Shown piece by piece: positions 1 to 51,960 of a stretch of DNA of 64,000 bases. How positions within the stretch are numbered: position 1 is the stretch's first letter; the number at the start of each line of letters is the position of its first letter. The position numbers were made by a program, and so were the translations under genes. This DNA is from an uncultured Candidatus Saccharibacteria bacterium (GTDB taxonomy: Bacteria; Patescibacteriota; Minisyncoccia; Phycocordibacterales; PALSA-1337). Below the pieces are notes generated by a model, which worked only from the letters and a program-made list of their open reading frames with translations, did not search any database and had not been told where the DNA came from. The stretch covers positions 16,334-80,333 of the forward strand of contig CAYHNH010000003.1 in NCBI GenBank assembly GCA_964358005.1, written 5' to 3'.

Positions 1-87
1 TTTGGAATATCTGAATCAGTTACAAATAGTGAATGGGCTACATACTACACGCCACTAAATATAACAGCCTACGTTGATGAAGAATGG

Positions 88-351
88 GTGGAAGATTTTA
101 AATCTTTGAGGGAGCATCGTAAAAAAGTTGATGAGGAGGTTAGGATAGAAAATGCTGAAAATCCTGAAAAAATAGCGAGATTGAAAAAAGAGTTTGGCAT
201 TACGGCTGTACCGACAAATGCAGATAAGACGCTGAGCGATAAAAGCGAAACATCTCAGTCTAAACCTGATAAGAAACAAATGAGTAGGAGAGTCAAAATA
301 ATAATAGGGGTAATTGTTATAGCCTTTATTTTAGCCGCTCTTTCTTCATAG
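88..351 (+). CDS. hypothetical small protein with C-terminal transmembrane segment
   Basis: 87-aa ORF; charged N-terminal half; hydrophobic C-terminus IIIGVIVIAFILAAL; no recognised domain. Confidence 0.3.
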   Translation: MEDFKSLREHRKKVDEEVRIENAENPEKIARLKKEFGITAVPTNADKTLSDKSETSQSKPDKKQMSRRVKIIIGVIVIAFILAALSS

Positions 352-370
352 ATCCTGACGATTTTCAATT

Positions 371-766
371 ATGACGAACTTTGCAAAAAATGTTCAAGAA
401 GCGACAGAAACTGAATTACTACTTTGGGTTAACACCCTTGATCCTAATTACACAAAGCTAGCATCGGATGAGTTGACTAGGCGCACCATAAAACGTCTTA
501 ATGAATCTGTTGATAAGAGCACGCTTCAAGCCAAAGAATCATCGGATGTCTCAGAAAGATTTACTGCCGCACTGTTCCTTCTCGCTGTTGCCCAACTACT
601 TGTAGCAGTTTTCCAACTGATCCTATCTTTTGTTTATCCAGACAATGAACAAGCTAGGGCGGCTTTGGGTATATTTATGGTAATTGCTACTGCCGTTATA
701 CTAACCTTCTTTGCCGGCAAGATATTCAAAGGGAAGCGGTCTAAAGCTAAATATGAAAAGAGTTAA
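371..766 (+). CDS. hypothetical membrane protein
   Basis: 131-aa ORF with two hydrophobic helices near the C-terminus; overlaps next gene start by 14 nt. Confidence 0.3.
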   Translation: MTNFAKNVQEATETELLLWVNTLDPNYTKLASDELTRRTIKRLNESVDKSTLQAKESSDVSERFTAALFLLAVAQLLVAVFQLILSFVYPDNEQARAALGIFMVIATAVILTFFAGKIFKGKRSKAKYEKS

Positions 767-1367
767 TAACCCCATAGAAACTGTAGATTTTGGAAAAACC
801 GTGATTCCAGAGAATCGCCTCAAATTTCTTGGCGATAAATGTGCTGAGGTGCTTAGTAAAGTCTCAGGGAATGTTATTGAAGTTGGTGTCTATAAAGGAG
901 GCACTCTCATTGAACTAGCTAAACAGGTAAGGGATGTCTGTCCGCAGTATAAGGTTTATGGAGTAGACACTTTTGAAGGTCATCCCTACGATGATGGCCA
1001 TCCAGTTCATCCTAAGGGTAAGTATGCGGATGTAAATATTACTGATCTTCAAGAGATAATCAAAAAGGAAGGCCTTAGTGAGTGGGTCGAGCTGATTCAA
1101 GGCAAGATCGAGGACGTTTTTGATTCCTTGCCGGCAAAAGAATTTGCGTTTGCCCACATCGATTGTGATCTCTACATACCAATAAAATTCTGTGCTACTC
1201 ACATTCCACCACATATTAAAAAAGGAGGAGTGATCTACTTTGATGATTATGGCCACGAGCATTGTCTTGGGGCTACAAAGGCTGTAGACGAGGTGTTTGC
1301 AAAGGCTGATATACATGAGGTATCGTTGAGTGACGGAACCTGTTGGTCAGGTTACATAAACCTCTAA
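753..1367 (+). CDS. TylF/MycF-family (macrocin-O-methyltransferase-like) class I SAM-dependent O-methyltransferase
   Basis: Start placed at ATG 753 because the ORF-track start at 711 is TTG. Motifs IEVGVYKGGTLIELAK and FAFAHIDCDLY with GGVIYFDDYGH match the TylF family. Confidence 0.6.
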   Translation: MKRVNNPIETVDFGKTVIPENRLKFLGDKCAEVLSKVSGNVIEVGVYKGGTLIELAKQVRDVCPQYKVYGVDTFEGHPYDDGHPVHPKGKYADVNITDLQEIIKKEGLSEWVELIQGKIEDVFDSLPAKEFAFAHIDCDLYIPIKFCATHIPPHIKKGGVIYFDDYGHEHCLGATKAVDEVFAKADIHEVSLSDGTCWSGYINL

Positions 1368-1369
1368 AT

Positions 1370-1852
1370 ATGGAACATAGTGCCATACTCACAAAAGAAC
1401 TTGTCCAAGAGGCGTATAAGCTGGTAGAAAAGGCTATTATCGACTTCCTTAAGGGTGATCATTCCAAGAAGGAATGGCTTCATGTGGTTGTTCTAGATCC
1501 GAGGGCTAAATTTGGCCAAGTTAAATATGAGGACGCCGTTCTCTTTGAGCATTCGATAAATCCTGATAAATGGGATTCCGATCTCAAGGATCGCGCACAC
1601 AAGAAGGCAATGGTTGCATGGGAACATGGAATGAATACCCACGATGTCCAGCAAAAACGCCCGTATCTTTTTAAGAAAGGTGATAACAAGTATGCCGGTG
1701 CTGTGGCTCATGAAGGCATCATCGTTTCTGTTGTAGCGATCCAATGGTACTTCGATGAACTTTTTGCAGAGTGGATCGCCGCCTCATGTCGCGCACTCGC
1801 GCTTGAAAAGATGGAGGCTATCATAAATGAGAAAGGAAGGCATTTTGTCTAA
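1370..1852 (+). CDS. hypothetical protein
   Basis: ORF-track start at 1343 is TTG; first ATG at 1370 lies directly after the upstream stop. No confident domain assignment. Confidence 0.4.
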   Translation: MEHSAILTKELVQEAYKLVEKAIIDFLKGDHSKKEWLHVVVLDPRAKFGQVKYEDAVLFEHSINPDKWDSDLKDRAHKKAMVAWEHGMNTHDVQQKRPYLFKKGDNKYAGAVAHEGIIVSVVAIQWYFDELFAEWIAASCRALALEKMEAIINEKGRHFV

Positions 1853-1855
1853 ATA

Positions 1856-3544
1856 ATGATCAAACTCGGACTTACATCCGGAATACATGATACTTCCGCA
1901 TCTCTTGTAATTGATGGGGTTATTGTTGCTGTTGGTGAGGAAGAGCGTTTCAATCGAAAGAAACATACGGGCGAATTTCCAGTAAATGCAATTCAGTTTT
2001 GTCTTGAGAGGGCTGGAATAAAGATAGGTGATGTAGATGAAGTGTGTGTTGGTATGAAATGGAGCGAGCGTGCCCAAGTGCGCTTGGATATGCGTATGAA
2101 ATTTGCCGATACCTCTGAGCTTAAAGAGCAAGTAAAAGCACAAGCAACCGAGGATATGAAAAGACACGACGAGGTTTCAAAGATCCTGACTGAGACGTTC
2201 GGCTATGCCGGCAAAATCACTTTTTATGACCATTATGATTGTCACGCCTCCTCTTGTTACTTTCCATCCGAATTTAACCATGCGGCTATCTTGATTCTCG
2301 ATGGAGCAGGTGAAAGAGCCTCTGCTCGGATATATAAAGCGACTGAAACAAAGCTAGAAAGCGTATTTCAGATCGATTACCCAAACTCCATAGGAAGATT
2401 TTACGGATGGATCACTGACTACTTGGGATTTCAAATAGATTGTGATGAGGGAAAGGTTATGGGTCTTGCATCATATGGCGACCTATCTCTGGTGGATCAG
2501 ATGAGTAAATTAGTTGCGATCAGTAAAGATGGGAGCTATCAACTGGACTATAGCTACTTCGGATTTATTCGTGACAATAGGCAAGGCTTCACCCCTAAAT
2601 TCTATGAAATGTTTGGGCCAAAACGAAACAAGAATGAAGAGATAACACAGCACCATATGAATGTCGCTCGTGCCGCTCAAGCAGCCTTGGAGGAGGTTGT
2701 GGTAGGTATGGTTAAGCTGGCAAAAGAGCTGACCGGAGAGGATAATCTATGCCTAAGCGGTGGCGTTGCTCTAAATAGCGTTGCAAATGGGAAGATCTTG
2801 GAATCTGGTCTATTCAAGAACATTTATATTTATCCGGCGGCCGGTGATGCCGGCACTGGTATAGGTGCGGCCTTATATGCCTATTACTCAGCTCAGAGTA
2901 ATAAAGTAACTCACCTTGAAAATCAGTCTGCCTATCTAGGATATGAATCGAATGATGGCGAGATCCTAAAAGCCTTAGCTAATAGCCAGCTAAAGTATTC
3001 AACCCCGACAAATCTTTATGAGGAAACAGCAAGTCTCCTTGTTCAAAACAAGGTTGTTGGTTGGTTTCAAGGTAGAGCAGAAGTCGGGCCAAGGGCGTTG
3101 GGTAACCGAAGCATACTTGCCAATCCTGCTCTTGCCGGCAATAAAGACAGAGTTAACAACAAGATTAAGTTCAGGGAATCATTCAGGCCGTTCGCTCCCA
3201 GCGTACTCAGTGAATATGCAAAGGAATATTTTGAGATGAGGGGTGCTGATTCGCCATACATGATTATGGCGTTCAACACTAAGGAAGATAAGAGAAATAA
3301 GATCCCAGCCGTTGTGCATGTGGATGGAAGCGCTAGAGTTCAGACTGTTACAAAAGAACAAAATGAGAAATACTTTGAGCTTATTGAAGAGTTTAATAGG
3401 CAATCGAGTATACCCATGCTTCTAAACACTTCGTTTAATAAAGCAGGCGAAGTGCTTGTGAACACCCCAGAACAGGCCATTGCCGCCTTTCTAGGATCAG
3501 AGTTGGACGTGCTTGTTATTGATAAATACCTAATACAAAAATGA
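1856..3544 (+). CDS. carbamoyltransferase, NodU/CmcH (NovN-like) family
   Basis: N-terminus MIKLGLTSGIHDTSASLVIDGVIVAVGEEERFNRKKHTGEFP is typical of the NodU/CmcH O-carbamoyltransferase family; 562 aa; ATG 4 nt after the upstream stop. Confidence 0.75.
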   Translation: MIKLGLTSGIHDTSASLVIDGVIVAVGEEERFNRKKHTGEFPVNAIQFCLERAGIKIGDVDEVCVGMKWSERAQVRLDMRMKFADTSELKEQVKAQATEDMKRHDEVSKILTETFGYAGKITFYDHYDCHASSCYFPSEFNHAAILILDGAGERASARIYKATETKLESVFQIDYPNSIGRFYGWITDYLGFQIDCDEGKVMGLASYGDLSLVDQMSKLVAISKDGSYQLDYSYFGFIRDNRQGFTPKFYEMFGPKRNKNEEITQHHMNVARAAQAALEEVVVGMVKLAKELTGEDNLCLSGGVALNSVANGKILESGLFKNIYIYPAAGDAGTGIGAALYAYYSAQSNKVTHLENQSAYLGYESNDGEILKALANSQLKYSTPTNLYEETASLLVQNKVVGWFQGRAEVGPRALGNRSILANPALAGNKDRVNNKIKFRESFRPFAPSVLSEYAKEYFEMRGADSPYMIMAFNTKEDKRNKIPAVVHVDGSARVQTVTKEQNEKYFELIEEFNRQSSIPMLLNTSFNKAGEVLVNTPEQAIAAFLGSELDVLVIDKYLIQK

Positions 3545-4155
3545 ATAAAAAGATTGTTATATTTGATTTTGACGGAGTGATCGTTGACTCGTTCTCGATG
3601 TGTCTCAAGATAGTTGATTCACGAGAATATATTACTGAACCAGAATACAGGCGTAGGTTTGAAGGTAATGTCTTTGATGCTAAAAGAAAATTCAAAGATC
3701 CGAATACGACTATGGAAAGCTTCGATCAACATTACGCTCCAGAGGTGATGAAGTGCGAGCCCTTTAAGGGCATGGCTGATGCAATCAAAGCACTATCTGA
3801 GAAATATATACTAGTGATAGTTTCATCTACGGAGACTGTTTCGATTGATTCGTATCTGAAGTCTGTAAACCTGAGGGATTACTTCAAAGAAATTCTAGGT
3901 AGTGATGTAGATAGGAGCAAGGTAAAGAAGATTCAGAGAGTTTTGAAGGATTACAAAGCTGAACCTACCGACGCCATTTTCATCACTGATACGCTAGGGG
4001 ACATCAATGAAGGCGATCATTGCGGCGTTAAATCTATTGCGGTTACTTGGGGTTATAACAATAAGGAGGTTCTGGAAAAAGGTAAACCGTATGCCATTGT
4101 GAAGGAGCCAGCAGAATTGACGCAGAAGGTTACGGAGTTCCTATCAAAGAAATAG
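3541..4155 (+). CDS. HAD-superfamily hydrolase
   Basis: N-terminal motif I VIFDFDGVIVDS; 204 aa; overlaps the carbamoyltransferase stop by 4 nt (ATGA coupling). Confidence 0.65.
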   Translation: MNKKIVIFDFDGVIVDSFSMCLKIVDSREYITEPEYRRRFEGNVFDAKRKFKDPNTTMESFDQHYAPEVMKCEPFKGMADAIKALSEKYILVIVSSTETVSIDSYLKSVNLRDYFKEILGSDVDRSKVKKIQRVLKDYKAEPTDAIFITDTLGDINEGDHCGVKSIAVTWGYNNKEVLEKGKPYAIVKEPAELTQKVTEFLSKK

Positions 4156-4256
4156 GCTCTTGTATGGCTCTAAACTGATGCCATTCCTGCATTTCCTTGA
4201 TTAATTGATTCCATTCAGCTCTAATTAGGGTCACATAATTTTAGCAACAAATAAAT

Positions 4257-4871
4257 ATGAATAAATACATTATAGGCGTATGTCTCGTTATTCTGGTTAT
4301 TGTCGGGGCGGTATACTTCTCGAAGAATAAAGATTTAAATGGTACCGGTAGCGACCCGCTTCTTGCGGGGGATGCAGTTTTAAAGGCGATCAAGGACGCA
4401 GATTACCAAAAACTTGAAAGTCTGACGAGCTCTGACGGGTTATCTTGGGATCACTACATAAACCTTGATCTTAAGGATTCGAAATATCATATTCCCAAAG
4501 ACCGGATTTCCTCAACTTTCACAAACTCTGAAAAACGTCTTTTTGGGTATGCGGATGGAAGCGGTGCCCCGATCGTGATAACGGGCAACGAGTACATGAA
4601 AAAATATGTGTATCGGCACGACTACCTGGACGCAACAAACACAAAGGTGACCATTATTAAGCCTTCTGTGGACATCACTAATGAGCAGGACAAATTTGTC
4701 ATGAGCCAAATGAATCTGTATGGTGGCATCGGCTCGAGAATCGTCACTGCGCACCACTATGCTGATCCCGCGGCCAACGATTTTGACTACAGCACCATTT
4801 ACCTCGTCTTTGATACCGAGAATGGGGAATATAAGCTAAGAGGGATTGCTCGCTACTACTGGACTATCTAG
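4257..4871 (+). CDS. hypothetical N-terminally membrane-anchored/secreted protein
   Basis: N-terminal hydrophobic helix IIGVCLVILVIVGAVYF followed by a soluble domain; no recognised family. Confidence 0.4.
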   Translation: MNKYIIGVCLVILVIVGAVYFSKNKDLNGTGSDPLLAGDAVLKAIKDADYQKLESLTSSDGLSWDHYINLDLKDSKYHIPKDRISSTFTNSEKRLFGYADGSGAPIVITGNEYMKKYVYRHDYLDATNTKVTIIKPSVDITNEQDKFVMSQMNLYGGIGSRIVTAHHYADPAANDFDYSTIYLVFDTENGEYKLRGIARYYWTI

Positions 4872-4882
4872 TACCCGCTGAC

Positions 4883-5257
4883 TCACTTCTTATAAACAGG
4901 CCCATGGCCTCTGATCTTCTTGAGCAGTTCGGCAGCTTCGTCATAGAGGGACATGCCTTGGAACATCTTACTGCCAGAGGAACTACATATCTCTAATAGC
5001 TCATCTATAGCTTCTCCGGTAAAGCCGGCCTCATGGAAGACGCTAGCCTTGCGCATAGTCCACCTGATACCGGCGACGGCGGCGGCTCGTGACCCTTCAG
5101 ATTCATATATAGCATCGATCTCAGACTGCGCCTGGAGCAGCCAACGCTCATAGACCTCCCTAGAATACGGGTCGGATTCGAGCTTGGGCAGTGCCTCGAC
5201 GGCTTCTTGGTCGGTTACCTGCCAATGCTCCGGGGCTGGCCCTGATTCGCCTTTCAT
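4883..5257 (-). CDS. hypothetical protein
   Basis: Track ORF starts at TTG 5296; first ATG gives MKGESGP... at 5257. No recognised domain. Confidence 0.3.
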   Translation of the reverse strand: MKGESGPAPEHWQVTDQEAVEALPKLESDPYSREVYERWLLQAQSEIDAIYESEGSRAAAVAGIRWTMRKASVFHEAGFTGEAIDELLEICSSSGSKMFQGMSLYDEAAELLKKIRGHGPVYKK

Positions 5258-5398
5258 AGTGCAAATATAGCATAATTTCGAAAAGTTGACACTCAAACCG
5301 TTTCATGTTACTTTATTTCCATATTAGCTGTTTTGAAAATGCAAAAATGGGCCTAGAAATACGCCTATCAAACTTCAACCCAAAGAGGAGATCCCTAT

Positions 5399-6358
5399 AT
5401 GGTCAGTGTAAGACTGCGCCGTAGATACGGTTTGCCTCTCGAAGGCGAAACCGGTCTCGATGCCCATCATGAAAGATTACTTTGTCATCTAGACGCCCGT
5501 CATACGGTCGAGGAAATGAGAGAGCTGGTCGCACAGTTTGAAGGGTTTAGATCGCTCGTTATGGCCGTTGATCAGTCGAATGGCAAGTCTGGAGTCCCAG
5601 CGTTAAGGCCTCAGGTGACGTCTGTCCAGAACGAGCAGCTCAATGGTCACTCCCACCGGATCGATGACTCCTATGTGCGCGAGAAATACAAACTGCCTCC
5701 TTCGGGGCCGTTAAGTCTGAATCGGGAGAGGATCGATAAGCTGATCTATTTGGAGCGAAACATCCAAGCTTACCAAAACGACCCCAAGATGGCCGGAGCG
5801 ATCAGAGACTGGCGTCAATTGATGCGGGGTATTCTGGCAGAACAGCGTTTCGTATCTGCCTGGACACACGATAATTTTTGTCAGCCCGGTGTAAAACTAG
5901 TCAGAGGAGCGACACTCCGTGAAGACACGGTCGACAAGGCTGATGCCATTATGGAACTTGTCGATGGCAGAATTTGGAAATTCCAGGTGAAGACTGGCCG
6001 TCAGGGCAGTTTTGAGGAGTTTGCCAGAATTGGGGTAGTGCTGGTTAGAACCAAGTATGATTATACTCCCGTCCAGATTCGGGCTGCCGCCATACGGGCC
6101 ATGTTTGATTATCTTGAGTTCAAGAAGAGCCTGATCCCGCTACCACTATATCTCGATGATGCCGAAACCGGAATCAAGATCGAACTTTCGTGGGCAGCAT
6201 TACAGCCGCAGTTTCGTAACCTGCCGCTATCTGATGTTTCCTTTGCCCACTTGAACGCACGCGCCCAGGAGGTCGTCCGATCCTACGGCAAGGCTACCCT
6301 TGCCTGCCAAGTCACAACGCCGCATGGAGCTACCCAGGTCATCCACGCCCCGAAATAG
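5399..6358 (+). CDS. hypothetical protein (319 aa)
   Basis: Long ORF with protein-like composition, divergent from the 4883-5257 gene; no recognised domain. Confidence 0.4.
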   Translation: MVSVRLRRRYGLPLEGETGLDAHHERLLCHLDARHTVEEMRELVAQFEGFRSLVMAVDQSNGKSGVPALRPQVTSVQNEQLNGHSHRIDDSYVREKYKLPPSGPLSLNRERIDKLIYLERNIQAYQNDPKMAGAIRDWRQLMRGILAEQRFVSAWTHDNFCQPGVKLVRGATLREDTVDKADAIMELVDGRIWKFQVKTGRQGSFEEFARIGVVLVRTKYDYTPVQIRAAAIRAMFDYLEFKKSLIPLPLYLDDAETGIKIELSWAALQPQFRNLPLSDVSFAHLNARAQEVVRSYGKATLACQVTTPHGATQVIHAPK

Positions 6359-6410
6359 TCGGGGCTTTTTTGTACGCAAAACCATTATACCAGGCCATAT
6401 CTGCAGGTAG

Positions 6411-6440
6411 TTGACAAACGCAGTCAAACTATGCTAGTAT
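6411..6440 (+). promoter_or_regulatory. candidate sigma70-type promoter of the cold-shock gene (TTGACA-N18-TGcTAGTAT extended -10)
   Basis: TTGACA at 6411-6416; TGc-TAGTAT at 6432-6440; about 58-nt leader before the csp ATG, consistent with long csp 5'UTRs. Confidence 0.4.
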
Positions 6441-6498
6441 GGACACTTCAAGAAGCGGAGTCGAATTCTTTGAAGTTAAAACTAAAGACAAAATCAAA

Positions 6499-6699
6499 AT
6501 GATGCAGGGAACGATCAAGACCCTTACGGATCGAGGATTCGGTTTCATCGCTCGCGAAGGCGAGACGAAGGACCTTTTCTTCCATTCGAAGGATCTGCAG
6601 GGTGTGGCTTTCGACAGCCTCCAGCAGGGTCAGGCAGTGTCATTCGAGGTTGTTGACGGTCCGAAGGGCCCTTCAGCCAAGAATGTTAAGCTCGCCTAA
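6499..6699 (+). CDS. cspA: cold-shock protein (CspA family)
   Basis: MMQGTIKTLTDRGFGFIAREGETKDLFFH...GQAVSFEVVDGPKGPSAKNV matches the CspA RNP1/RNP2 pattern; start taken at ATG 6499 rather than the upstream in-frame ATG 6439. Confidence 0.8.
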   Translation: MMQGTIKTLTDRGFGFIAREGETKDLFFHSKDLQGVAFDSLQQGQAVSFEVVDGPKGPSAKNVKLA

Positions 6700-6721
6700 C
6701 TAGTCAAGCTCGCAAGAGCGG

Positions 6722-6750
6722 AAAAAACACCCCGAAAGGGGTGTTTTTTC
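6722..6750. terminator. bidirectional rho-independent terminator
   Basis: aaaaaACACCCCgaaaGGGGTGTttttttc: 7-bp GC stem with GAAA tetraloop flanked by an A-tract and a T-tract, between convergent csp (+) and 6752-8281 (-). Confidence 0.6.
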
Positions 6751-6751
6751 T

Positions 6752-8281
6752 TTATCGCCCATAGACCGTTATGAAGCTCGGGGCGGAGTAGTATTTCCCT
6801 GAGGGTTTTTTGGCGAATACGCCGATATCTATCCTCTGCCTTGCTTCTTGTACCAAGAATCGGATGGTTGCAGTGGTTGGATCAGCTGGGTCGATAGTCA
6901 TCGCGACTGTGGAAGCATCGCTATTCAGGACTCTCCATTCGAATACATATCCCGCAGTCGAGCCGGTGATGTCTATGGCCTCCGCAGAGACTTTAATAGT
7001 CCTAGAGGCTGTCCCTGACTGAACGCTCCGTGCTATAGCCGCCGGCGTGGTAAAGAGCCTCTCGTCTCCGGTAAAATCTTCGCTCGCTATCCTGAGCCTG
7101 ACAAGCGGAGGGATGTCTGCGGCGGTAAGCTCATTGGCCAGGCGCACCAGCTTGGCCGAATCATAATTCGGCTGGGGCAGGCCGTTCAGTAGATAGTGCG
7201 CGCGCTCTGTATTCTCGTGAGCTATAGAGCCTAGATAGTCTGATTCACTGTTGATTGACCTATGCGCGTGGCGGATCGCCATCTGGAGAGTGGGCATCAG
7301 TAACTGACTATTCGTGAGGGCACGCTTCACGTCGGGTTTGAATGCTGCCAGGCCTGCCATCGCTATCTTCACGAATGGCAGATCGCTCCCGGAAGCGTCG
7401 TGTCTGTAGTAATTGCTGCCGTCCTTACCATAATCTTCGGAACTGATGACGTAGGGGGTGTTGGCTATGTTGTCATCAGTGGACTCGATGAGAGAAGGGT
7501 ATATGTAGAGATTGTTGCGCGTGTATTGCTCATATAGCGCGTCCGCACCGGCCTGCGTCTTGTAGATGGCATAGGCGATGCTGTGCTTCACGCTGCCGCT
7601 AGTCTCGCCTGCGTAGGATGCTTGGCCCACTGTTATACCCGGTCGCACCCCCGTGGCACGCCCGGCTCCTCCGGAAAGTTGCCACTGGTGCTGGGGGAAC
7701 AGCCTGTTGGCGGCGGGGCATTCGGGATTCGGTGTCCAGCCGTCGCATAGGTTCACATGGAGTCCATCACGGTTCTCATATGTATCGCTGGAATTACCAG
7801 CGGCTTTGCCCTGGGCGTAGAGGGTATTGAGCAAGTCGCAGGCTTCCTTCGAAATGACACGCGAGCTGTCGAGGCCGTCAGGGCCTATGAGAGCAGTGTT
7901 GCAGACAGTTCCTATTTGAGGTACTGGAGTAGGGGGAATAGGCTGAGAGATGGGGGGTATGTTTGGAGGTCCTGCAACGACGAGTGATGTTTGAGCCTGC
8001 ATCCTGGAAGCCAGCAGTGCCCGAGTGAGAGGTCCGACAACGCCTACCTGGGGCAGGCCATTTGCCCGTTGGAGCCGGGTGACTGCAGCTTTCGTCAGTA
8101 AACCGAAATAGCCTGTGACCAGGCCTTCGGGGTAGATATTAGCATCGCGTGCCAGGAATGACTGCAGGATGCGCACTTGGTCGCCTCGCGAGCCGAGCGA
8201 AAGGGGAGATGTGATTGACTGGGCACCAGCCATGCCGGTGAATGCCAGGAAAAGCGCCACGGTCAAAAAAAGAGTCTTCAT
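6752..8281 (-). CDS. secreted protein with N-terminal peptidoglycan-binding (PG_binding_1-like) domain
   Basis: Signal peptide MKTLFLTVALFLAFTGMAGA; RGDQVRILQSFLA...GYFGLLTKAAVTRLQRANGL resembles the PG-binding domain; 509 aa; rest unassigned. Confidence 0.5.
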   Translation of the reverse strand: MKTLFLTVALFLAFTGMAGAQSITSPLSLGSRGDQVRILQSFLARDANIYPEGLVTGYFGLLTKAAVTRLQRANGLPQVGVVGPLTRALLASRMQAQTSLVVAGPPNIPPISQPIPPTPVPQIGTVCNTALIGPDGLDSSRVISKEACDLLNTLYAQGKAAGNSSDTYENRDGLHVNLCDGWTPNPECPAANRLFPQHQWQLSGGAGRATGVRPGITVGQASYAGETSGSVKHSIAYAIYKTQAGADALYEQYTRNNLYIYPSLIESTDDNIANTPYVISSEDYGKDGSNYYRHDASGSDLPFVKIAMAGLAAFKPDVKRALTNSQLLMPTLQMAIRHAHRSINSESDYLGSIAHENTERAHYLLNGLPQPNYDSAKLVRLANELTAADIPPLVRLRIASEDFTGDERLFTTPAAIARSVQSGTASRTIKVSAEAIDITGSTAGYVFEWRVLNSDASTVAMTIDPADPTTATIRFLVQEARQRIDIGVFAKKPSGKYYSAPSFITVYGR

Positions 8282-8311
8282 ACATATATAGACGGATGTG
8301 GCGGCTTAATC

Positions 8312-8331
8312 TGTGCGCGATAAGGGACTCG
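8312..8331. repeat. 20-bp direct copy of the tRNA-Val 3' end (tgtgcgcgataagggactcg)
   Basis: Identical 20-mer at 8312-8331 and 8467-8486; the latter covers the 3' acceptor/T-arm end of tRNA-Val. Confidence 0.55.
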
Positions 8332-8467
8332 GTCACGGGTCCTCGCCTGCTGGCTCGGCCCGCGACCCCGCCTCGCTCGCCTTCGCGAGCTCCGGCCTTC
8401 TCGCCCCTTATCGCATCCCAATGATGCTCCATTCGGATAGCATTCCAGCTATCCTCATGGATCATTG

Positions 8468-8540
8468 TGCGCGATAAGGGACTCGAACCCCTGGCCTACC
8501 CCACGTCAAGGGGTCGCTCTACCAACTGAGCTAATCGCGC
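8468..8540 (-). tRNA. tRNA-Val (anticodon GAC)
   Basis: Manual cloverleaf: acceptor GCGCGAT/ATCGCGC, D-arm GCTC-AGTTGGTA-GAGC, anticodon loop TTGACGT, T-loop TTCGAGT; 73 nt, no encoded CCA. Confidence 0.85.
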
Positions 8541-8615
8541 GATTCACTTGCAGAACGACGATAACTCTAACAAAAAAATCCTGGAAAATCCACTTTTACC
8601 ACAAGCTTAAATTAG

Positions 8616-8687
8616 TAGCCCCACGGGGAATCGAACCCCGATTACTGCCTTGAAAAGGCAATGTCCTAACCGTTAGACGATGGGGCC
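8616..8687 (-). tRNA. tRNA-Glu (anticodon TTC)
   Basis: Manual cloverleaf: acceptor GGCCCCA with G1-U72, anticodon loop TTTTCAA, T-loop TTCGATT; 72 nt. Confidence 0.8.
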
Positions 8688-8773
8688 AGACCAGAAAACG
8701 ATAACATCTTTTTGTAAAATCCGCAAAAAATGCTAGAGTGTAGCGCATTCAGGGGCGCTAGGGCTCTTGATCA

Positions 8774-8860
8774 TGGAGAGGTGGCAGAGTGGTCTAATGC
8801 ACCACTTTCGAAAAGTGGCAGAGGCGCAAGCTTCTCGGGAGTTCGAATCTCCCCCTCTCC
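8774..8860 (+). tRNA. tRNA-Ser (anticodon CGA), long variable arm
   Basis: Acceptor GGAGAGG/CCTCTCC, anticodon stem-loop CCACT-TTCGAAA-AGTGG, long variable arm, T-loop TTCGAAT; 87 nt. Confidence 0.85.
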
Positions 8861-8868
8861 GCAAAAAA

Positions 8869-9306
8869 ATGAAGATATATCACTACAGCTCGCCCTGCAA
8901 TCTACCATTTAGCTTTGCTAGACACCATTGGTTCGTCATCGAGAAGGATGGCAGGCTCTCAAGATGGGAGATTCTCTTTAGGAATAATTCCCGTAAGGCA
9001 GGCTGGGGCCATCTGCATCTAGGCGCATTCAAGCCCTTTCAGGGCATTGAGGTGCTTCCTTTCAGTACCAAATACTCTTGGGGATCCAAGCTCATTGAAT
9101 CTGTCGTCGGTGACAGTCAGGAGATCAGGGACGCGGCTGAACTCATAGAAAATTCTGTCATCACCTACCCGCATAAGGAGAAATACGGGCTGCTCGGACC
9201 TAACAGCAATACGTATGCGCAATGGGTGCTCGATAATTGCCATCTCTTCAAGAAAAAATTGTCCTGGAATTCATTCGGCAAGGGATTCAAGTCAGATAGC
9301 CTGTAA
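8869..9306 (+). CDS. hypothetical protein (possibly DUF3750-like)
   Basis: The ORF-track N-terminus overlaps tRNA-Ser, so start taken at ATG 8869 (MKIYHYSS...). HHWFVIEKDG...GPNSNTYAQWVL motif; family assignment uncertain. Confidence 0.4.
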   Translation: MKIYHYSSPCNLPFSFARHHWFVIEKDGRLSRWEILFRNNSRKAGWGHLHLGAFKPFQGIEVLPFSTKYSWGSKLIESVVGDSQEIRDAAELIENSVITYPHKEKYGLLGPNSNTYAQWVLDNCHLFKKKLSWNSFGKGFKSDSL

Positions 9307-9387
9307 CTATTTTTAGTGTACGTCGTCTTATGACATGCGTGGTTTTTTGAGCGCATTATCAGATTATCAACTAACTAAAACAAACAT

Positions 9388-9564
9388 ATGGATATGCAAA
9401 AATATCTTAGCGGATTGGAGTACCCGGCGACGAAGCAGGACATCGTGGATAAGGCTAACGAGAACGATGCGCCCGATGAGGTCATGAAGAAGATAGACCT
9501 GCTGGATGATAAGGAGTATGCGAGTGCTGCCGACATAGGCAAAGCCAACGGCAAGATGAAATAA
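9388..9564 (+). CDS. small DUF2795-like protein (58 aa)
   Basis: MDMQKYLSGLEYPATKQDIVDKANENDAPDEVMKKIDLL... follows the DUF2795 pattern (YP.tK..lv..A...gA.d.v). Below the ORF-track length cutoff and found by eye. Confidence 0.5.
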   Translation: MDMQKYLSGLEYPATKQDIVDKANENDAPDEVMKKIDLLDDKEYASAADIGKANGKMK

Positions 9565-9616
9565 AAAGTGATACAATCCTCCGGTTGGGAGATCGCAGTG
9601 CACTGCCGCATTGCTT

Positions 9617-10120
9617 ATGAAGAAGATCATTCTCGCCGCGATCATAGGCGGCATATTCTTGTGCTTAGGAGTTGGTTATTTCGCGACGAGGCCCGAAGAG
9701 GTTAGGGAGGACAGATACTATAAGGTCGCCTATGTCATAGATGGCGATACTTTTGTCGCTGATGCAGACGGTCGCGATATTACCGTGCGCATGCTCGGCA
9801 TAGACACCCCGGAGACAGTGGATCCTAGCAAGCCGCCGGATTGCTTCGGCAGGGAGGCCTCAAATGCCACGAAAGCCCTATTGAAGGCCAGATCGGTCCA
9901 TTTTGGCATCAATAAGGGCAGGGAATTGAAGGACCGCTATGACAGGTACTTGTTGTATGTTTATCGGGATGATGGTTTGTTTGTGAATGAGTATCTTATC
10001 CGTGAAGGCTTTGCCAGGGAATACACCTTCGGCCGGCCTTATTCGATGCAGGCAGAATTTAGGAGCATGGAATCTAAAGCCAGGAAAGCTCATGTGGGAT
10101 TATGGGGTAAGTGCCAATGA
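9617..10120 (+). CDS. thermonuclease (staphylococcal-nuclease/SNase-like) family protein
   Basis: YKVAYVIDGDTFVADADGRDITVRMLGIDTPET...CFGREAS...RYLLYVYRDDGLFVNEYLIREGFA match the SNase fold motifs; N-terminal TM/signal; start at ATG 9617 (track start is TTG). Confidence 0.7.
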   Translation: MKKIILAAIIGGIFLCLGVGYFATRPEEVREDRYYKVAYVIDGDTFVADADGRDITVRMLGIDTPETVDPSKPPDCFGREASNATKALLKARSVHFGINKGRELKDRYDRYLLYVYRDDGLFVNEYLIREGFAREYTFGRPYSMQAEFRSMESKARKAHVGLWGKCQ

Positions 10121-11041
10121 TCACTTCGCGTGCAGATACAGATAGATGTCCTCTACGGCTTTGACAGCGTCGCCGGCGGCGATGTTGTTCTGGTGATAGA
10201 GGCCGTCAGTGCAGTCGCCAGCAGACCAGACTCCATCTAGAGATGCGCGTTGGGTCCTTGCGTCTATCGCTATGCGACCATATGCGTCGAGCTTGATGAT
10301 GTCCTTAGCAAATCCGGTGTTGGGTATCGAGCCTATCTCCACGAATATGCCTGTGACAGGTAGATCGACGTCCTTCTTTGTCTTGGTGTCTGTATAGATG
10401 AGATTCGTGACGAATTTGCCGCCTTTGACCTGCTTTGGCACGGCTCCAAGCACGGCTTTCATCTTGGGATGCTTCAAGACCTTGTCTATGGTCACTTGAT
10501 CGGCTCGGAAATCGCTACGGACCAGGAGGGTAACACTCTTGCAGTAGGCGAGGAGCTGGGCCGCAGCCTCTAGTGCCGCATTGCCTCCACCTATCACAGC
10601 CACATCCTGATCCGCGTAGAGTGGACCGTCGCAGGTGGCGCAGTAGGTGAGACCTTTGTTGTCATATTCCTCGGCTCCCGGTACTTCGAGCTTGCGCCTG
10701 CTCGAGCCTGTCGTGATGAGCACGGTCTTGGCTTCATATGATCCTTTGTCTGATGTCACCTTGAAATGTTCACCCGATCTCACTAGTCCAGTCACTGATT
10801 CGAGCTCCTTTACGTCGATGATGCCCTCGGCGTACGCCTTCAGGTGTTTCTCGAGCTTGTTAGAAAGCTCCAGTCCGGAGATCTTTATATCTCCAATCCA
10901 ATTCTCTATGCCCTCGGATACGGTCGACTGGCCATTCCAGTCCTTGGTTATGAAAACAGTCTTGAGGCGCTTCCTGGCGGCATAAACACCGGCTGCAACG
11001 CCGGCTGGTCCACCACCCAAGATTGCAAGGTCATAGAGCAT
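10121..11041 (-). CDS. trxB: thioredoxin-disulfide reductase
   Basis: LAILGGGPAGVAAGVYAARK FAD motif, redox-active CATCDG, GGGNAALEAA NADPH motif; 306 aa. Confidence 0.85.
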   Translation of the reverse strand: MLYDLAILGGGPAGVAAGVYAARKRLKTVFITKDWNGQSTVSEGIENWIGDIKISGLELSNKLEKHLKAYAEGIIDVKELESVTGLVRSGEHFKVTSDKGSYEAKTVLITTGSSRRKLEVPGAEEYDNKGLTYCATCDGPLYADQDVAVIGGGNAALEAAAQLLAYCKSVTLLVRSDFRADQVTIDKVLKHPKMKAVLGAVPKQVKGGKFVTNLIYTDTKTKKDVDLPVTGIFVEIGSIPNTGFAKDIIKLDAYGRIAIDARTQRASLDGVWSAGDCTDGLYHQNNIAAGDAVKAVEDIYLYLHAK

Positions 11042-11055
11042 TTAAAAAACGTAGG

Positions 11056-12270
11056 TTATTTGAGCCTGGATCTCCTCAAGAATGCCGGAACTGCACCCCA
11101 GTCGTCATCGTCATCGGTCTTAGCCTCCTTCTTGGCTTCGACTGTTGGGCGCTCTGTTTTAACTGCCACGGGTTCGCGTTTTGCATCAACGTTCAGTCCG
11201 TTGTAGATCTTGCCTTTTTCTGGCTTATCAGAGCCCCCCTTCATGATAGCTGCAACAGAAGGCTCAGCGGTGATAGGGGTAGGACGGGACTGTGCGGCTA
11301 TGGCTGCCGGATGGCCTTCGGGGAAGCCTGTGGCGATGACTGTGATCTTGATCTCATTCTTGCGCAGCTTGTCGTTCCTGACGGTACCGAAGATGATCTT
11401 GGCATCAGGGTCAATAGACTCTGTGATGACCTTGGCGGCATCCTGGATCTCGAACATTGTGAGGTCCTCGCCGCCAGCGATGGAGAAAAGGACTCCCTTG
11501 GCACCAGTGATGGAAACGTCGAGGAGTGGGGAATTGATGGCGGCCTTGGCTGCCTCGATAGCGCGATTCTCGCCGGTGGCAGTGCCGATGCCCATGAGCG
11601 CAGAGCCGGCGTTCTCCATGACAGTGCGGATGTCGGCGAAGTCGATATTGACGAGTCCAGGTGTGGTGATGAGGTCTGCTATGCCCTCGACTGCGTGACG
11701 GAGTATGTCATCGCACATGGCGAAAGCGGTCTTGACCGAAGTCGATTTGTCGATGTTTGCGAGAAGGCGGTCGTTCGGGATGACTATGATGGCGTCCACC
11801 TCCTTGCGGAGTTCCTCTAGGCCGGCGTCGGCGATGCGTGTACGCTGTCTGCCCTCAAAGAAGAAAGGCTTCGTAACTACGGCGACAGTGAGACAGCCGA
11901 GCTCCTTGGCGATGCGAGCGACGATGGGGCTAGCGCTCGAACCTGTGCCACCACCCTCGCCACAGGTGATGAAGACCATATCTGCCCCCTTTACCGTCTC
12001 TTGGATCTCGTCGCGAGTCTCTTCGGCGGCGCGTTTGCCCAGATCTGGATTCATGCCAGTGCCGAGGCCGCGAGTTATATTCTTGCCTATGTGTATGCGC
12101 TTCTTGGTGAGAGAACGGTGGAGATCCTGCGCATCGGTGTTGACTACGATGAAATCGACGCCCTTCACCTTGCAGTTGATCATATGATTCACTGCGTTGC
12201 CGCCGGAGCCGCCTACACCGAGGACTTTTATGCGTGCGAAGGCTTCGATGTCTGGCGTTATATTAGGCAT
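11056..12270 (-). CDS. ftsZ: cell division protein FtsZ
   Basis: VLGVGGSGGNAVNHM and GGGTGTGSSA tubulin signature; acidic C-terminal tail. Confidence 0.9.
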   Translation of the reverse strand: MPNITPDIEAFARIKVLGVGGSGGNAVNHMINCKVKGVDFIVVNTDAQDLHRSLTKKRIHIGKNITRGLGTGMNPDLGKRAAEETRDEIQETVKGADMVFITCGEGGGTGSSASPIVARIAKELGCLTVAVVTKPFFFEGRQRTRIADAGLEELRKEVDAIIVIPNDRLLANIDKSTSVKTAFAMCDDILRHAVEGIADLITTPGLVNIDFADIRTVMENAGSALMGIGTATGENRAIEAAKAAINSPLLDVSITGAKGVLFSIAGGEDLTMFEIQDAAKVITESIDPDAKIIFGTVRNDKLRKNEIKITVIATGFPEGHPAAIAAQSRPTPITAEPSVAAIMKGGSDKPEKGKIYNGLNVDAKREPVAVKTERPTVEAKKEAKTDDDDDWGAVPAFLRRSRLK

Positions 12271-12349
12271 GATGGGGATTAGGTCTGGGCAGGTTTATAG
12301 GGCTCAATCATATCAAGATATCGGTGAAATGCAACCGACGACCGGCGGG

Positions 12350-12898
12350 TCAGTCGGAGAATAGGACCCAGAGCGCTAGTAGTATGACGGCGATCTCGAG
12401 ATAGAAAGTCCACAGCCTTAGGTAGTATTTCCAGATGAATGTCCAGTAGTAGGCAAGCGTGCCTTTTCGTTCGTCTATATTTTCGACAGGGGCCGTATGA
12501 AGATAGAAAGGTTTTTTAGAAAATGGCCACAGCCACATGATGCCGTATTCTATGGAGTCAAATATGAAATGGCTCCAGGATCCGAACAATATGGTCCAGC
12601 CGATGTAGGAAGTGAACTGACTGCCGGCGATATAGCCAGCGAGGACAATGGTCAGGCTAGCCATAAGCCAGACTAGGGGAGCGTGGCTCCAGTACTTCCT
12701 GTGGCTGTCGGCCTTCTGTAGCTTCATCGATCTGTGCTCGAAAAAGAATTTGATGAGATCGAAGTCGGGTCCCTCCGATGCAATGAGTCCGATCACATAT
12801 AGCGCAGTCATCTGCGCTGGCGCGAAGACTGCTCCTCCTATGAATAAAAGAAGCTTCGTTGCCAGAAAGCCTCCTGCTAGGTGACCGGGTAAGACCAT
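12350..12898 (-). CDS. polytopic membrane protein (possible membrane-bound metal-dependent hydrolase, YdjM-like)
   Basis: Start chosen at ATG 12898 (MVLPGHLAGG...) to avoid overlapping ftsA; several hydrophobic helices with His/Asp/Trp-rich loops; assignment tentative. Confidence 0.35.
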   Translation of the reverse strand: MVLPGHLAGGFLATKLLLFIGGAVFAPAQMTALYVIGLIASEGPDFDLIKFFFEHRSMKLQKADSHRKYWSHAPLVWLMASLTIVLAGYIAGSQFTSYIGWTILFGSWSHFIFDSIEYGIMWLWPFSKKPFYLHTAPVENIDERKGTLAYYWTFIWKYYLRLWTFYLEIAVILLALWVLFSD

Positions 12899-12909
12899 GG
12901 CTCTTATCT

Positions 12910-14091
12910 CTAAGGCAAAAACTGCTTGAGCCAGCGGCTGGCGGCTCGCCAAGAATTCTTCATGAACTCCACTGAGGTGTCGATCTCGGGACCTTCCTCG
13001 GCGTGTATGCCCCAGATGCATAGTCCGTAGGCAACGGCCCAGGTGGCGTCTTTGAACGAGGACTTGCCGTCTATGGTGCCGATCGAACCTATGCGGGCGG
13101 GGAGCTTGAGGGCGACTTTCGCCATGGTGTCGAGGGCATTCAGGCTCGAGCCGCCGCCTGTGATGATGACACCGGCCGGCAGGAGGCCATTCCTGCCTAT
13201 CCTCTTCAGGTGTGCCTCTATGAGCTCGAATATGTCGGACATGCGCGCCGACACGATCTCCTCGAGCTTCTTTCTCGGGAAGGAACTGCCGGTTATGGCG
13301 CCGATCTTTATCTGCTCGGCTTCCTCTAGCGGTACGCGCAGGCCAAGGGCGATGTCATTGGTGATGTCGGTCGAACCTATAGGGAAGACCTCAAGCGAGG
13401 TCGGTATATTGTTCTCGAATACAGCGATCGAGACCGTCTCCGCGCCGATGTTCGTTAGCACGCAACCGGCGATCTTTTGGGTCTTGTTCAATGTGACGAA
13501 GCTCGCGGCTATGGGCGCGGCCATGATGTCCTCGACCTCTATACCGGCTTCGTTCACTGCGGCTATGAGGTCGGCGACATGGTGTTCGAGGCAGGTTATA
13601 AAAAGGGTCTTCTTCTCGACCTTGTTGCCCATGAGACCAAGAGGGCTGCCCAGGGATGAGTCTCCGTCGATCTTGAACTCGAGCGGTATGTCATAGATGA
13701 TCCTACGATTGGCTATGGCTGCGCGGGGGATGTCCTTTTCCGACTGTTCCTTGAGTTTTTCTATGTCGAGCGAGGTTATCTCTGCGTCGGCGCGGGAGGT
13801 GACGATCGAGCTCGAAACAACGGTGCTCGCCAAGCCGATGCCGCCGACGGCCACGAAGGCTTTCTTGATCTTGACGCCAGCCTTCTCCTCGGCGGCCGTA
13901 ACGGCCTTCCTGATGCTCTCCGAGACGTCTCTTACGTTGGTCACGTAGCCGTGGCGGAGGCCGCGGGATTCGGCCATGCCGGCGCCGATGACCTTGGGCA
14001 GGCCCCTCTCATTACGCTCACGCGTGTCTACTATGACCGCTTTTACGAAGTTGGTCCCTACGTCGATTCCTGTGATTATATTTCTTGCCAT
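12910..14091 (-). CDS. ftsA: cell division protein FtsA
   Basis: N-terminus IITGIDVGTNFVKAVI actin-like phosphate-1 motif; 393 aa; immediately upstream of ftsZ on the same strand. Confidence 0.85.
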   Translation of the reverse strand: MARNIITGIDVGTNFVKAVIVDTRERNERGLPKVIGAGMAESRGLRHGYVTNVRDVSESIRKAVTAAEEKAGVKIKKAFVAVGGIGLASTVVSSSIVTSRADAEITSLDIEKLKEQSEKDIPRAAIANRRIIYDIPLEFKIDGDSSLGSPLGLMGNKVEKKTLFITCLEHHVADLIAAVNEAGIEVEDIMAAPIAASFVTLNKTQKIAGCVLTNIGAETVSIAVFENNIPTSLEVFPIGSTDITNDIALGLRVPLEEAEQIKIGAITGSSFPRKKLEEIVSARMSDIFELIEAHLKRIGRNGLLPAGVIITGGGSSLNALDTMAKVALKLPARIGSIGTIDGKSSFKDATWAVAYGLCIWGIHAEEGPEIDTSVEFMKNSWRAASRWLKQFLP

Positions 14092-22667: not shown

Positions 22668-23186
22668 ATGTTCTCCGACCCTGGAGCAAATATCGCTAAA
22701 TTAGGCGTCGCTGACGGCATGAAAGTTGCCGACCTCGGTGCCGGGTCGGGCTTCTATTCTATAGAGTCAGCCAAGCGCGTAGGCGCTAGTGGCCGCATCT
22801 ACGCCATAGATGTCCAGAAGAACCTCCTGGAGAGGCTGCGTTCGGTGGCTCAAGCCCAAAGCCTCAATAACGTCGAGGTCATATGGGCCAACGCCGAGAA
22901 GATAGGCGGCACCAAGCTCAAGGATGCCTTAGTGGACAGAGCCATAGTCTCCAACATCCTCTTTCAGGTCGCCAAAATGGATGATTTTGCTCTGGAGGTC
23001 AAGCGGATCACGAAGTCCGGAGGCAAGCTCCTTATCATCGAATGGAATGAGACTACGCCGCTCGCCCCCAAGACCCAGGTGCCCCAGATAAAGGTCCAGA
23101 CGTTGTTCGAGAAGAGCGGCTTCAAGCTGGAGGAGACCTTCCCGGCGGGTGCTAGTCACTATGGCATGATATTTACGCGCATATGA
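22668..23186 (+). CDS. class I SAM-dependent methyltransferase
   Basis: VADLGAGSGFYS motif I, IYAIDV motif II; 172 aa. Confidence 0.6.
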   Translation: MFSDPGANIAKLGVADGMKVADLGAGSGFYSIESAKRVGASGRIYAIDVQKNLLERLRSVAQAQSLNNVEVIWANAEKIGGTKLKDALVDRAIVSNILFQVAKMDDFALEVKRITKSGGKLLIIEWNETTPLAPKTQVPQIKVQTLFEKSGFKLEETFPAGASHYGMIFTRI

Positions 23187-31347: not shown

Positions 31348-31613
31348 GGTTCTGACTTCCGGTAATGACCGCGCTTTTTGAAGGCGCAGGTCGGGTTTAG
31401 TTGTTCATTTCAACCCACCTGCGCTTGCGCGAAAGGGGCCGAACTGATGCTTTCACAGACAAAAGTATTCGGCTGTCAACAGGATGCTTGATCCTGGGGC
31501 TACACAGCCCTGAACTATGAATTCTTGTACAATGATACTACATATAGAGGTAAAAGTCAAGGGCAGATGAAATATAACTATAATATCGAATAAAGGCTCA
31601 AGTTTGCTGTTTT

Positions 31614-47365: not shown

Positions 47366-47369
47366 TTTC

Positions 47370-48683: not shown

Positions 48684-48720
48684 AGTGGACATAAATCCGA
48701 TTTGGAGTAATATTTAAGCC

Positions 48721-49251: not shown

Positions 49252-49263
49252 AGCATAATTTTC

Positions 49264-49950: not shown

Positions 49951-49999
49951 AACCCTGGTTTGCCTGGTATTGACTTTAAAATTAGGCTACAATTAGTCT

Positions 50000-50602: not shown

Positions 50603-50608
50603 TATGTT

Positions 50609-51058: not shown

Positions 51059-51070
51059 TGTTTTAAGGCC

Positions 51071-51652: not shown

Positions 51653-51663
51653 TTTTAAAATAT

Positions 51664-51906: not shown

Positions 51907-51960
51907 GTGCGTGCACGCCGTTAGATTTTAGTGTTTTGTGAAAAGGCGTATACTGTTTGC

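Follow-up and report, generated by a model that had tools for sequence, protein, structure and literature searches.

The window analysed here, a 64,000-nt stretch of contig CAYHNH010000003.1 from groundwater of the Hainich aquifer (well H41, 0.1-µm fraction), carries near its start four plus-strand genes that encode a methyltransferase (MT), a small protein (ORF2), a carbamoyltransferase (CT), and a HAD phosphatase (HAD). All four open reading frames (ORFs) are present where a sequence-only reading of the window had placed them, and its family assignments (TylF-type methyltransferase, NodU/CmcH carbamoyltransferase, and HAD hydrolase) are correct according to Pfam. We find that these genes form the distal cargo of an integrative island, ∼11.7 kb long, in a Parcubacteria-type genome that belongs to the candidate phyla radiation (CPR). 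Window coordinates are listed in Table 1; features given in source contig coordinates are marked L001 (window position = L001 position minus 8145).

The four genes are closely spaced. With ATG starts, there is a gap of 2 nt at the first junction (1367/1370), a gap of 3 nt at the second (1852/1856), and an overlap of 4 nt at the third (3541/3544); the ATG starts of MT and ORF2 are backed by homologues of equal length. Of the overlaps of 4–25 nt proposed in the sequence-only reading, the one of 4 nt therefore stands and the others are short gaps: the 25-nt overlap arises only with a mechanical TTG start for ORF2 at 1343 in place of the ATG at 1370. The 131-aa ORF that precedes the cassette overlaps the start of MT by 14 nt, so that the tightly packed co-directional array continues upstream of 753. 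Given this packing, the single transcription unit that had been suggested is plausible, and it probably includes more than the four genes. MT, ORF2, CT, and the membrane-anchored 204-aa gene downstream of HAD share a start context, (C)TAAAT(A)-ATG (746–755, 1363–1372, 1847–1858, and 4249–4259), in which there is no obvious Shine-Dalgarno sequence. For ORF2 and CT, the upstream gene terminates at the TAA inside this context, an arrangement that suggests translational coupling. A repeat finder also reports the start-context motif at L001 5080, 8888, and 12392 (families D4/D10). Scans for promoters and terminators returned counts at the level of shuffled sequence, that is, of chance, and are uninformative. 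None of the four cassette proteins has a transmembrane segment.

Table 1. Features of the cassette and its surroundings in the window (GC3, G+C content at third codon positions)
Feature	Position	Strand	Details
MT, 204 aa, TylF/MycF/NovP-related S-adenosylmethionine (SAM)-dependent O-methyltransferase	753..1367	+	Pfam TylF 6.3e-17, Methyltransf_24 8e-15
ORF2, 160 aa, GlcG/HbpS/DUF336-fold protein	1370..1852	+	Recurrent CT partner
CT, 562 aa, full-length NodU/CmcH/TobZ-type O-carbamoyltransferase	1856..3544	+	Carbam_trans_N 2.2e-60, Carbam_trans_C 1e-70
HAD, 204 aa, HAD-IA (COG0546/phosphoglycolate-phosphatase-like) phosphatase	3541..4155	+	HAD_2 2.3e-21
228-aa ORF, 3' part	1..351	+	Island ORF, C-terminal transmembrane segment; gene is L001 7810–8496 and begins 335 nt upstream of the window; GC3 0.31
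131-aa membrane protein	371..766	+	Kyte-Doolittle 19-residue maximum 2.61; GC3 0.34
204-aa protein, N-terminal membrane anchor	4257..4871	+	GC3 0.53 (intermediate); Kyte-Doolittle maximum 2.61 at residue 4
Interval with right-hand island end	4156..4882	.	GC3 step from HAD (≤0.43) to ≥0.58 in the minus-strand gene 4883–5257

The cassette lies in a block of low G+C content. Positions 1–5000 of the window have a G+C of 0.39–0.44, compared with ∼0.53 in the remaining window, and L001 1501–13000 has 0.33–0.46, compared with about 0.51–0.59 outside. The GC3 of island genes is 0.28–0.45 (0.37–0.45 for the four cassette genes), against 0.56–0.66 for flanking host genes, which include those for Mur ligase, CSD, FtsZ, and TrxR. 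The whole block measures ∼11.7 kb (L001 ∼1400–13000), and position 1 of the window falls inside it. Its left end is a tRNA-Glu(CTC) gene (L001 1318–1392). The adjoining gene (L001 1352–2875) encodes a 507-aa Resolvase+Recombinase protein, a large serine recombinase (phrog_95 integrase, 1.9e-86), whose last ∼14 codons (...TPRGIEPRFQP-stop) lie antisense to the 3′ half of tRNA-Glu(CTC), ∼6.8 kb upstream of window position 1. Since the 3′ end of the recombinase gene overlaps the tRNA, its reading frame crosses the presumed junction between island and tRNA. An AAA_25 replicative-helicase-like gene comes next, followed by eleven co-directional genes, among which MT, ORF2, CT, and HAD are numbers 7–10. 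The locus thus combines a site-specific recombinase abutting a tRNA gene at one end with a compositional break. The lower G+C noted in the sequence-only reading is real, both by window G+C and by the GC3 of the four genes, and the horizontal origin it hinted at is supported by the position of these genes as cargo of a tRNA-Glu-bounded island with a large serine recombinase. They are accessory and mobile, and not the conserved housekeeping enzymes that it had allowed they might prove to be.

Two other identities of the island were rejected. As to a prophage, PHROG matches are limited to the integrase, generic methyltransferases, and an ATPase of helicase/primase type, and there are no structural genes; IMG/VR contains no close relative of ORF2, CT, or MT, and BFVD no fold match to ORF2. 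As to a known defence system, PADLOC returned a single marginal, partial mad2 match covering 35 residues of MT. The rest of the window is housekeeping in character (HisRS, signal peptidase, Pth, S1, GyrA, SMC, ClpB, Alr, TopA, and eight tRNAs). Its GyrA falls in a 90% cluster that contains a Candidatus Taylorbacteria protein, and the NCBI label on an identical CT fragment is "Patescibacteria group"; by these sequence markers, the host is a Parcubacteria-type CPR bacterium.

CT has the two-domain architecture of its family, a Kae1/ASKHA-like N-domain (PF02543, 205.4 bits against a cutoff of 24, residues 4–340) followed by a YrdC-like C-domain (PF16861, 237.1 bits against 27, residues 392–562). 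Its relatives in the PDB are GdmN (1.2e-98), NovN (2.8e-96), and TobZ (∼1e-82). The alignment with GdmN runs from end to end (334 bits) and conserves the motifs HxxxH (HYDCHA), DGAGE, GGVALNS, GDAG, GPRALGNRS, FRPFAP, VDGSARVQ, and LNTSFN. CT thus resembles TobZ and GdmN, in which the YrdC-like domain makes carbamoyl-AMP and the Kae1-like domain transfers it, but differs from them in belonging to a clade (47–82% identity) of proteins from uncultivated CPR bacteria and an Aenigmarchaeota protein, with a gene neighbourhood of its own. The top NCBIfam model is NodU (NF041651), at 209.6 bits against a cutoff of 1000, and CT is therefore not a NodU orthologue. Among the matches listed, the relatives at 47–82% identity come from named Patescibacteria, Dojkabacteria, and Aenigmarchaeota, with a Woesearchaeota protein next at 43%; to call such an enzyme unusual for a reduced genome, as had been done, was an overstatement. 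Relatives on mobile elements are distant (plasmids <40% identity, phages 30–34%).

MT matches Pfam TylF (PF05711) with 62.1 bits against a cutoff of 23, over profile positions 65–241 of 264. Its best solved relatives, NovP (2wk1, 9.5e-10), MycF, and CalS11, are all sugar O-methyltransferases. The glycine-rich SAM motif and the acidic DxDxY and DDY motifs are kept (against NovP: E.GV.kGG, idcDlY, and fDDY). MT matches NovP residues 85–278 and is without the ∼65–85 N-terminal residues of NovP and MycF, which are enzymes of 250–283 aa; it does not have the full-length TylF/MycF/NovP architecture and is a member of a short subfamily of ∼205 aa. Homologues at 61–74% identity adjoin CTs at other loci (L024 and L025–28, see below), and relatives on plasmids reach at most 33% identity.

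The sequence-only reading had listed ORF2 as an unknown protein. This holds as far as sequence families are concerned: ORF2 belongs to no Pfam or NCBIfam family, and two distant relatives reach PF03928 only at E 0.005–0.006, below the cutoff. The protein is not featureless, however, since it has a GlcG/HbpS/DUF336-type fold and is a recurrent partner of CT. It differs from the small-ligand-binding DUF336 proteins GlcG, HbpS, EfgA, and PduO-C in having no significant Pfam match, and in the close ORF2 clade, AI replaces the near-invariant SG of the DUF336 family. ORF2 represents an orphan family with 628 representative clusters; a close ORF2 was found in one out of 185,579 species-representative genomes. 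In the papers that could be searched, we found no report of a DUF336 protein working with a carbamoyltransferase, no other link between the two families, and no description of the module from CPR; nor do these papers describe the partners seen here together with carbamoyltransferases. A 2784-aa protein of Candidatus Riflebacteria (P0156, MBF0408091.1, annotated "Ig-like domain-containing") has 13 separate matches to the ORF2 profile, the best covering profile positions 75–144, which could mean that a portion of the fold recurs within the protein, or could be an artefact of composition.

HAD matches HAD_2 (PF13419) with 77.2 bits against a cutoff of 23.8 and carries motif I (DxD) as FDFDGVIVD at residues 8–16. 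Against the NCBIfam phosphoglycolate-phosphatase models, its best score is 68 bits, compared with a cutoff of 225. Because these scores fall so far below the cutoffs, no substrate specificity is assigned. HAD orthologues at 40–89% identity adjoin CT in L021, L024, and L022.

We compared ∼10 independent neighbourhoods of ORF2, CT, and MT homologues, using all-against-all BLAST together with tblastn over the loci (identities are to the window proteins). The locus with the closest CT, L021 (82%), has the order ORF2-CT-HAD-PEMT-like methyltransferase. Lower identities are accompanied by a variety of orders: IMPase-like-MT-HAD-CT in L024 (CT 72%, MT 74%); CT-HAD, then an Asn-synthase-like (amidotransferase) gene, in L022 (CT 62%); HAD'-CT-ASCH-DUF6879-NUDIX in L015 (CT 60%), where an ORF2 relative (172 aa, 30% identity, 1e-10) lies across tRNA-Gln; HTH-MT-CT in L025–28 (CT 59%, MT 61%); PEMT-like-MFS-x-CT-NUDIX in L017/18, from Aenigmarchaeota (CT 57%); and CarS-like-CT-thymidylate kinase in L019 (CT 54%). 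In L003/L010, from a Saccharibacteria metagenome-assembled genome, a tyrosine integrase is followed by ORF2 (70%), CT (39%), and an IMPase-like gene, and in L007, ORF2 (46%) stands beside CT (29%) and HAD''. Most close ORF2 homologues (L003–6, L008/9/12, and L014) precede a CT lineage that is 34–39% identical to the window CT. Two further ORFs, of 156 aa in L015 and 187 aa in L017, were considered as hidden ORF2 relatives and rejected (hhalign probability ∼0.1%); the L015 call (6825–7295), which lies upstream of HAD-CT, is probably spurious, since it overlaps tRNA-Gln(TTG) on the opposite strand (6909–6980).

In these neighbourhoods, the same functions return with different proteins. ORF2-family proteins accompany three divergent CT lineages. 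In the phosphoesterase slot we find HAD proteins from at least three lineages that cannot be aligned with one another, IMPase-like proteins (those of L003 and L024 are 30% identical), or a MutT-like NUDIX hydrolase. A methyltransferase recurs near CT as well, either TylF-like or isoprenylcysteine-MT-like. Such non-orthologous replacement and re-association in shuffled order speak for functional coupling in a shared pathway, and not for inherited synteny. It could be argued that four unrelated cargo genes simply ended up side by side on a compact island: where genes are as dense as they are in CPR genomes and on mobile islands, short spacers and overlaps are by themselves weak evidence for an operon, the promoter and terminator scans do not help, and gene order varies between loci. 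Against this stand the repeated assembly of the same families around CT, in different orders and with unrelated proteins in the same role, and the overlap or abutment of MT and CT, which is conserved at 59–74% protein identity; we consider this explanation very unlikely.

The PEMT/ICMT-type membrane methyltransferases (L021 3885–4427 and L017 5489–5995) are 32% identical over 107 residues, and both occur in loci without a TylF-like MT, for which they may substitute functionally.

Several of the related loci also resemble the window in their genomic setting, and the module is mobile in them as well. In L025, a low-G+C stretch containing the module opens just past tRNA-Ser; in L022, the module begins 70 nt beyond tRNA-Tyr; and in L003, it lies beside the tyrosine integrase in a G+C dip. 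The cassette is a recurrent accessory module in CPR bacteria and at one Aenigmarchaeota locus, and its loci often combine a low-G+C patch with a neighbouring tRNA or integrase gene. The enzymes themselves belong to known families; what appears to be new is the architecture of the module, its mobility on integrative islands, and its distribution among CPR bacteria and an Aenigmarchaeota archaeon.

We interpret the four genes, with moderate confidence, as a cytoplasmic small-molecule cassette that would O-methylate and O-carbamoylate a small phosphorylated metabolite resembling a sugar. HAD would remove the phosphate from, or expose a hydroxyl on, such a metabolite (a sugar, polyol, or nucleoside phosphate). 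MT, a short, NovP-like, and presumably metal-dependent enzyme, would O-methylate one hydroxyl, and CT would O-carbamoylate a different one, forming carbamoyl-AMP from carbamoyl phosphate and ATP and then passing the carbamoyl group to the hydroxyl, as its homology to TobZ, GdmN, and NovN predicts. ORF2, with its GlcG/DUF336 fold, would act as an accessory to CT, and probably binds a small ligand that supports carbamoyl transfer. The analysis shows which families the genes belong to, that their domains are intact, that they lie on the island, and that the partnerships recur; which step comes first, what kind of substrate is used, and what ORF2 does are inferred. Two observations shape the choice of substrate. 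The recurrence of phosphoesterases points to a phosphorylated precursor (sugar, polyol, or nucleoside phosphate). In addition, neither the island genes, including those upstream of the window, where sugar-pathway genes had been thought worth seeking, nor the 45 window ORFs scanned against Pfam include a glycosyltransferase, sugar-nucleotide, polymerase, or flippase gene; together with the missing N-terminal region of MT, the absence of glycosyltransferase and nucleoside-diphosphate-sugar genes makes a small substrate more likely than a polymer or large aglycone.

A number of points weigh against this picture of a mobile small-molecule cassette. The functional steps are all deduced from homology at the family level and from neighbouring genes, and the sugars or macrocycles tailored by the characterised relatives of MT and CT are already attached to large natural products and are not free metabolites. 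Downstream of one close ORF2 homologue (L013) there is no CT, and the neighbours of CT in L019 (thymidylate kinase and CarS) may be unrelated housekeeping genes. Near the right boundary of the island, no repeat of ≥9 nt of the tRNA-Glu end was found that could serve as an att site, which is not unexpected, since serine recombinases need only a very short core.

The closest analogue at the level of homology is the NovP/NovN pair of novobiocin biosynthesis, which carries out 4-O-methylation and then 3-O-carbamoylation of noviose. In both systems, a metal-dependent O-methyltransferase of the TylF family is joined by an O-carbamoyltransferase with the two domains of the NodU/CmcH type, and the analogy drawn in the sequence-only reading holds to this extent (NovN 9s2t matches CT at 2.8e-96). 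The likeness is at family level, however (MT to NovP 41.7 bits, CT to NovN 326.5 bits), and MT is without the N-terminal 65–85 residues of NovP. Neither the island nor the scanned window ORFs include the glycosyltransferase, dTDP-sugar, or aglycone-pathway genes of the novobiocin cluster; MT and CT are instead accompanied by a HAD phosphatase and a DUF336-fold protein, and the setting is a small integrative island in a CPR genome and not an actinomycete biosynthetic cluster. A looser parallel is nodS-nodU (N-methylation and 6-O-carbamoylation of Nod factor), where a SAM methyltransferase and a carbamoyltransferase are likewise encoded side by side; MT is of the TylF O-methyltransferase type, and no nodABC-type chitooligosaccharide genes accompany it.

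These analogues raise the question of whether MT and CT instead decorate the envelope, modifying a surface glycan or cell-wall precursor of the host and, in a manner similar to seroconversion, changing its recognition by phages or partner cells. The sugar-methylating relatives of MT would fit, as would the Nod-factor and aminoglycoside sugar carbamoyltransferases in the family of CT. Surface-modifying genes are common cargo of mobile elements. Small membrane-anchored proteins are encoded on both sides of the cassette (Table 1), in L022, the gene after CT-HAD encodes an Asn-synthase-like amidotransferase, and L017 has a GT1 gene close to CT. Yet glycan-building genes are missing from the island and from the 45 window ORFs scanned against Pfam, and one CT clade spans CPR bacteria and an Aenigmarchaeota archaeon (L017), whose envelopes differ. 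What recurs beside CT is a soluble phosphatase or a NUDIX hydrolase, and not an envelope enzyme. We consider envelope modification unlikely; the glycan decoration favoured earlier is unproven and less probable than small-molecule tailoring.

An alternative that keeps a small substrate is that the cassette serves as a resistance module by altering or inactivating a hydroxylated compound from outside the cell, for example a nucleoside or aminoglycoside-like antibiotic. To our knowledge, no resistance mechanism by O-carbamoylation has been described. The self-contained module moves between unrelated hosts without genes for scaffold biosynthesis, as a resistance module might, and its characterised relatives act on tobramycin, novobiocin, geldanamycin, and capuramycin (CapB, PMC6384614). 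This explanation leaves the persistent phosphatase and ligand-binding partner unaccounted for, and the island has no efflux or regulator gene, so that we regard it as very improbable. CapB, the 2′-O-carbamoyltransferase of capuramycin, a nucleoside antibiotic whose cluster also lists a putative O-methyltransferase, CapK (PMC6384614), provides by its description a precedent for nucleoside O-carbamoylation that is compatible with the NUDIX- and nucleotidase-like partners of CT loci; it is encoded in a large actinomycete cluster, in contrast to the CPR island.

Nucleic acids are a further class of possible substrate. CT could carbamoylate a hydroxymethylated base in DNA or RNA, as does the phage 5-hydroxymethylcytosine (5hmC) carbamoyltransferase (Yang et al. 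2021, eLife, PMC8670742), or take part in tRNA modification. The phage enzyme has the same Pfam architecture, uses the same carbamoyl phosphate and ATP chemistry, and is likewise located on a mobile element. A replicative-helicase-like gene is present on the island, and genes for NUDIX (MutT-like), ASCH, and thymidylate kinase proteins neighbour CT in other loci. Nevertheless, CT is only 26% identical to the characterised 5hmC enzyme, with many gaps, and scores 92 bits against it compared with 334 bits against GdmN. Genes for a thymidylate-synthase-like hydroxymethylase, dCMP deaminase, MazG-like protein, and PRA-PH domain are absent from every locus examined. The viral comparisons point the same way, given that IMG/VR lacks close relatives and that phage CTs are so divergent. 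Nucleic-acid modification in general is thus extremely unlikely, and on the low identity and the missing partner genes, we reject 5hmC-type DNA modification.

Small-molecule tailoring by the cassette can be extended to a broader proposal, which we put forward as distinctly unlikely in its full form. An ORF2-type protein, CT, and a phosphoesterase, with or without MT, might constitute a mobile biosynthetic module, so far unrecognised, of symbiotic prokaryotes of ultra-small size (CPR and DPANN). It would start from a phosphorylated metabolite that is universal, for instance a nucleotide or a sugar phosphate, and make an O-carbamoyl/O-methyl analogue of it. ORF2 would then be an obligate partner of carbamoyl transfer, and the product might be a nucleoside-type antimetabolite, a chain terminator, or a secreted effector that acts on viruses, hosts, or competitors. 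Biosynthetic genes are scarce in CPR bacteria and DPANN archaea, whose mobile elements and small molecules are little known. The window offers a well-delimited case of an integrative island with cargo that encodes chemistry, together with a testable association: CT, a GlcG-like protein, and interchangeable phosphoesterases repeatedly re-assemble in CPR/DPANN lineages. A modified nucleoside or sugar, if that is the product, could matter for the interaction between episymbiont and host or for virus resistance; if the chemistry is ordinary decoration of a surface or metabolite, the value lies mainly in annotation, namely a fold and context for the ORF2 family and the recognition of a short TylF-like subfamily.

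Of the small proteins encoded around the cassette, the 228-aa ORF has no family match in Pfam, PHROG, or PADLOC, and the Pfam and NCBIfam matches of the 131-aa ORF are all sub-threshold. The membrane-anchored 204-aa protein downstream of HAD likewise has no family match (Pfam, NCBIfam, PHROG, and PADLOC). Its gene comes after HAD in L002 and is absent from that position in the related locus L021; it is either the last gene of the island or the first of the host.

Elsewhere in the window, a second low-G+C block (47000–52000, 0.36–0.48) is probably another accessory or mobile region. It encodes a methyltransferase-Peptidase_S51 fusion (47346–48683), a His_Phos_1 phosphatase (48721–49251), a DUF4145 protein (49264–49950), a SocA/Panacea antitoxin-domain protein (50000–50602), and a 193-aa ORF. 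An exact 20-nt direct repeat (family D7) occurs at 8312–8331 and 8466–8485, with a spacing of 154 nt; the 3′ end of tRNA-Val(GAC) (8467–8540, minus strand) is covered by one of the copies, and the pair could be the att-like scar of another integration event.

Three further coding regions are of note. A 299-aa ORF (33959–34858) has an unusual architecture in which a NusB domain is joined to a C-terminal NUDIX domain. At 29605–31365, two ORFs of ∼580 aa on opposite strands overlap almost fully; they fall in the most G+C-rich kilobase of the window (0.65 at 30001–31000), and the minus-strand ORF has no Pfam family. Finally, a 285-aa protein (25035–25892) carries a T4SS_pilin domain (7.2e-08), and two genes upstream of it, a 433-aa ORF (23183–24484) encodes a solute-binding protein.

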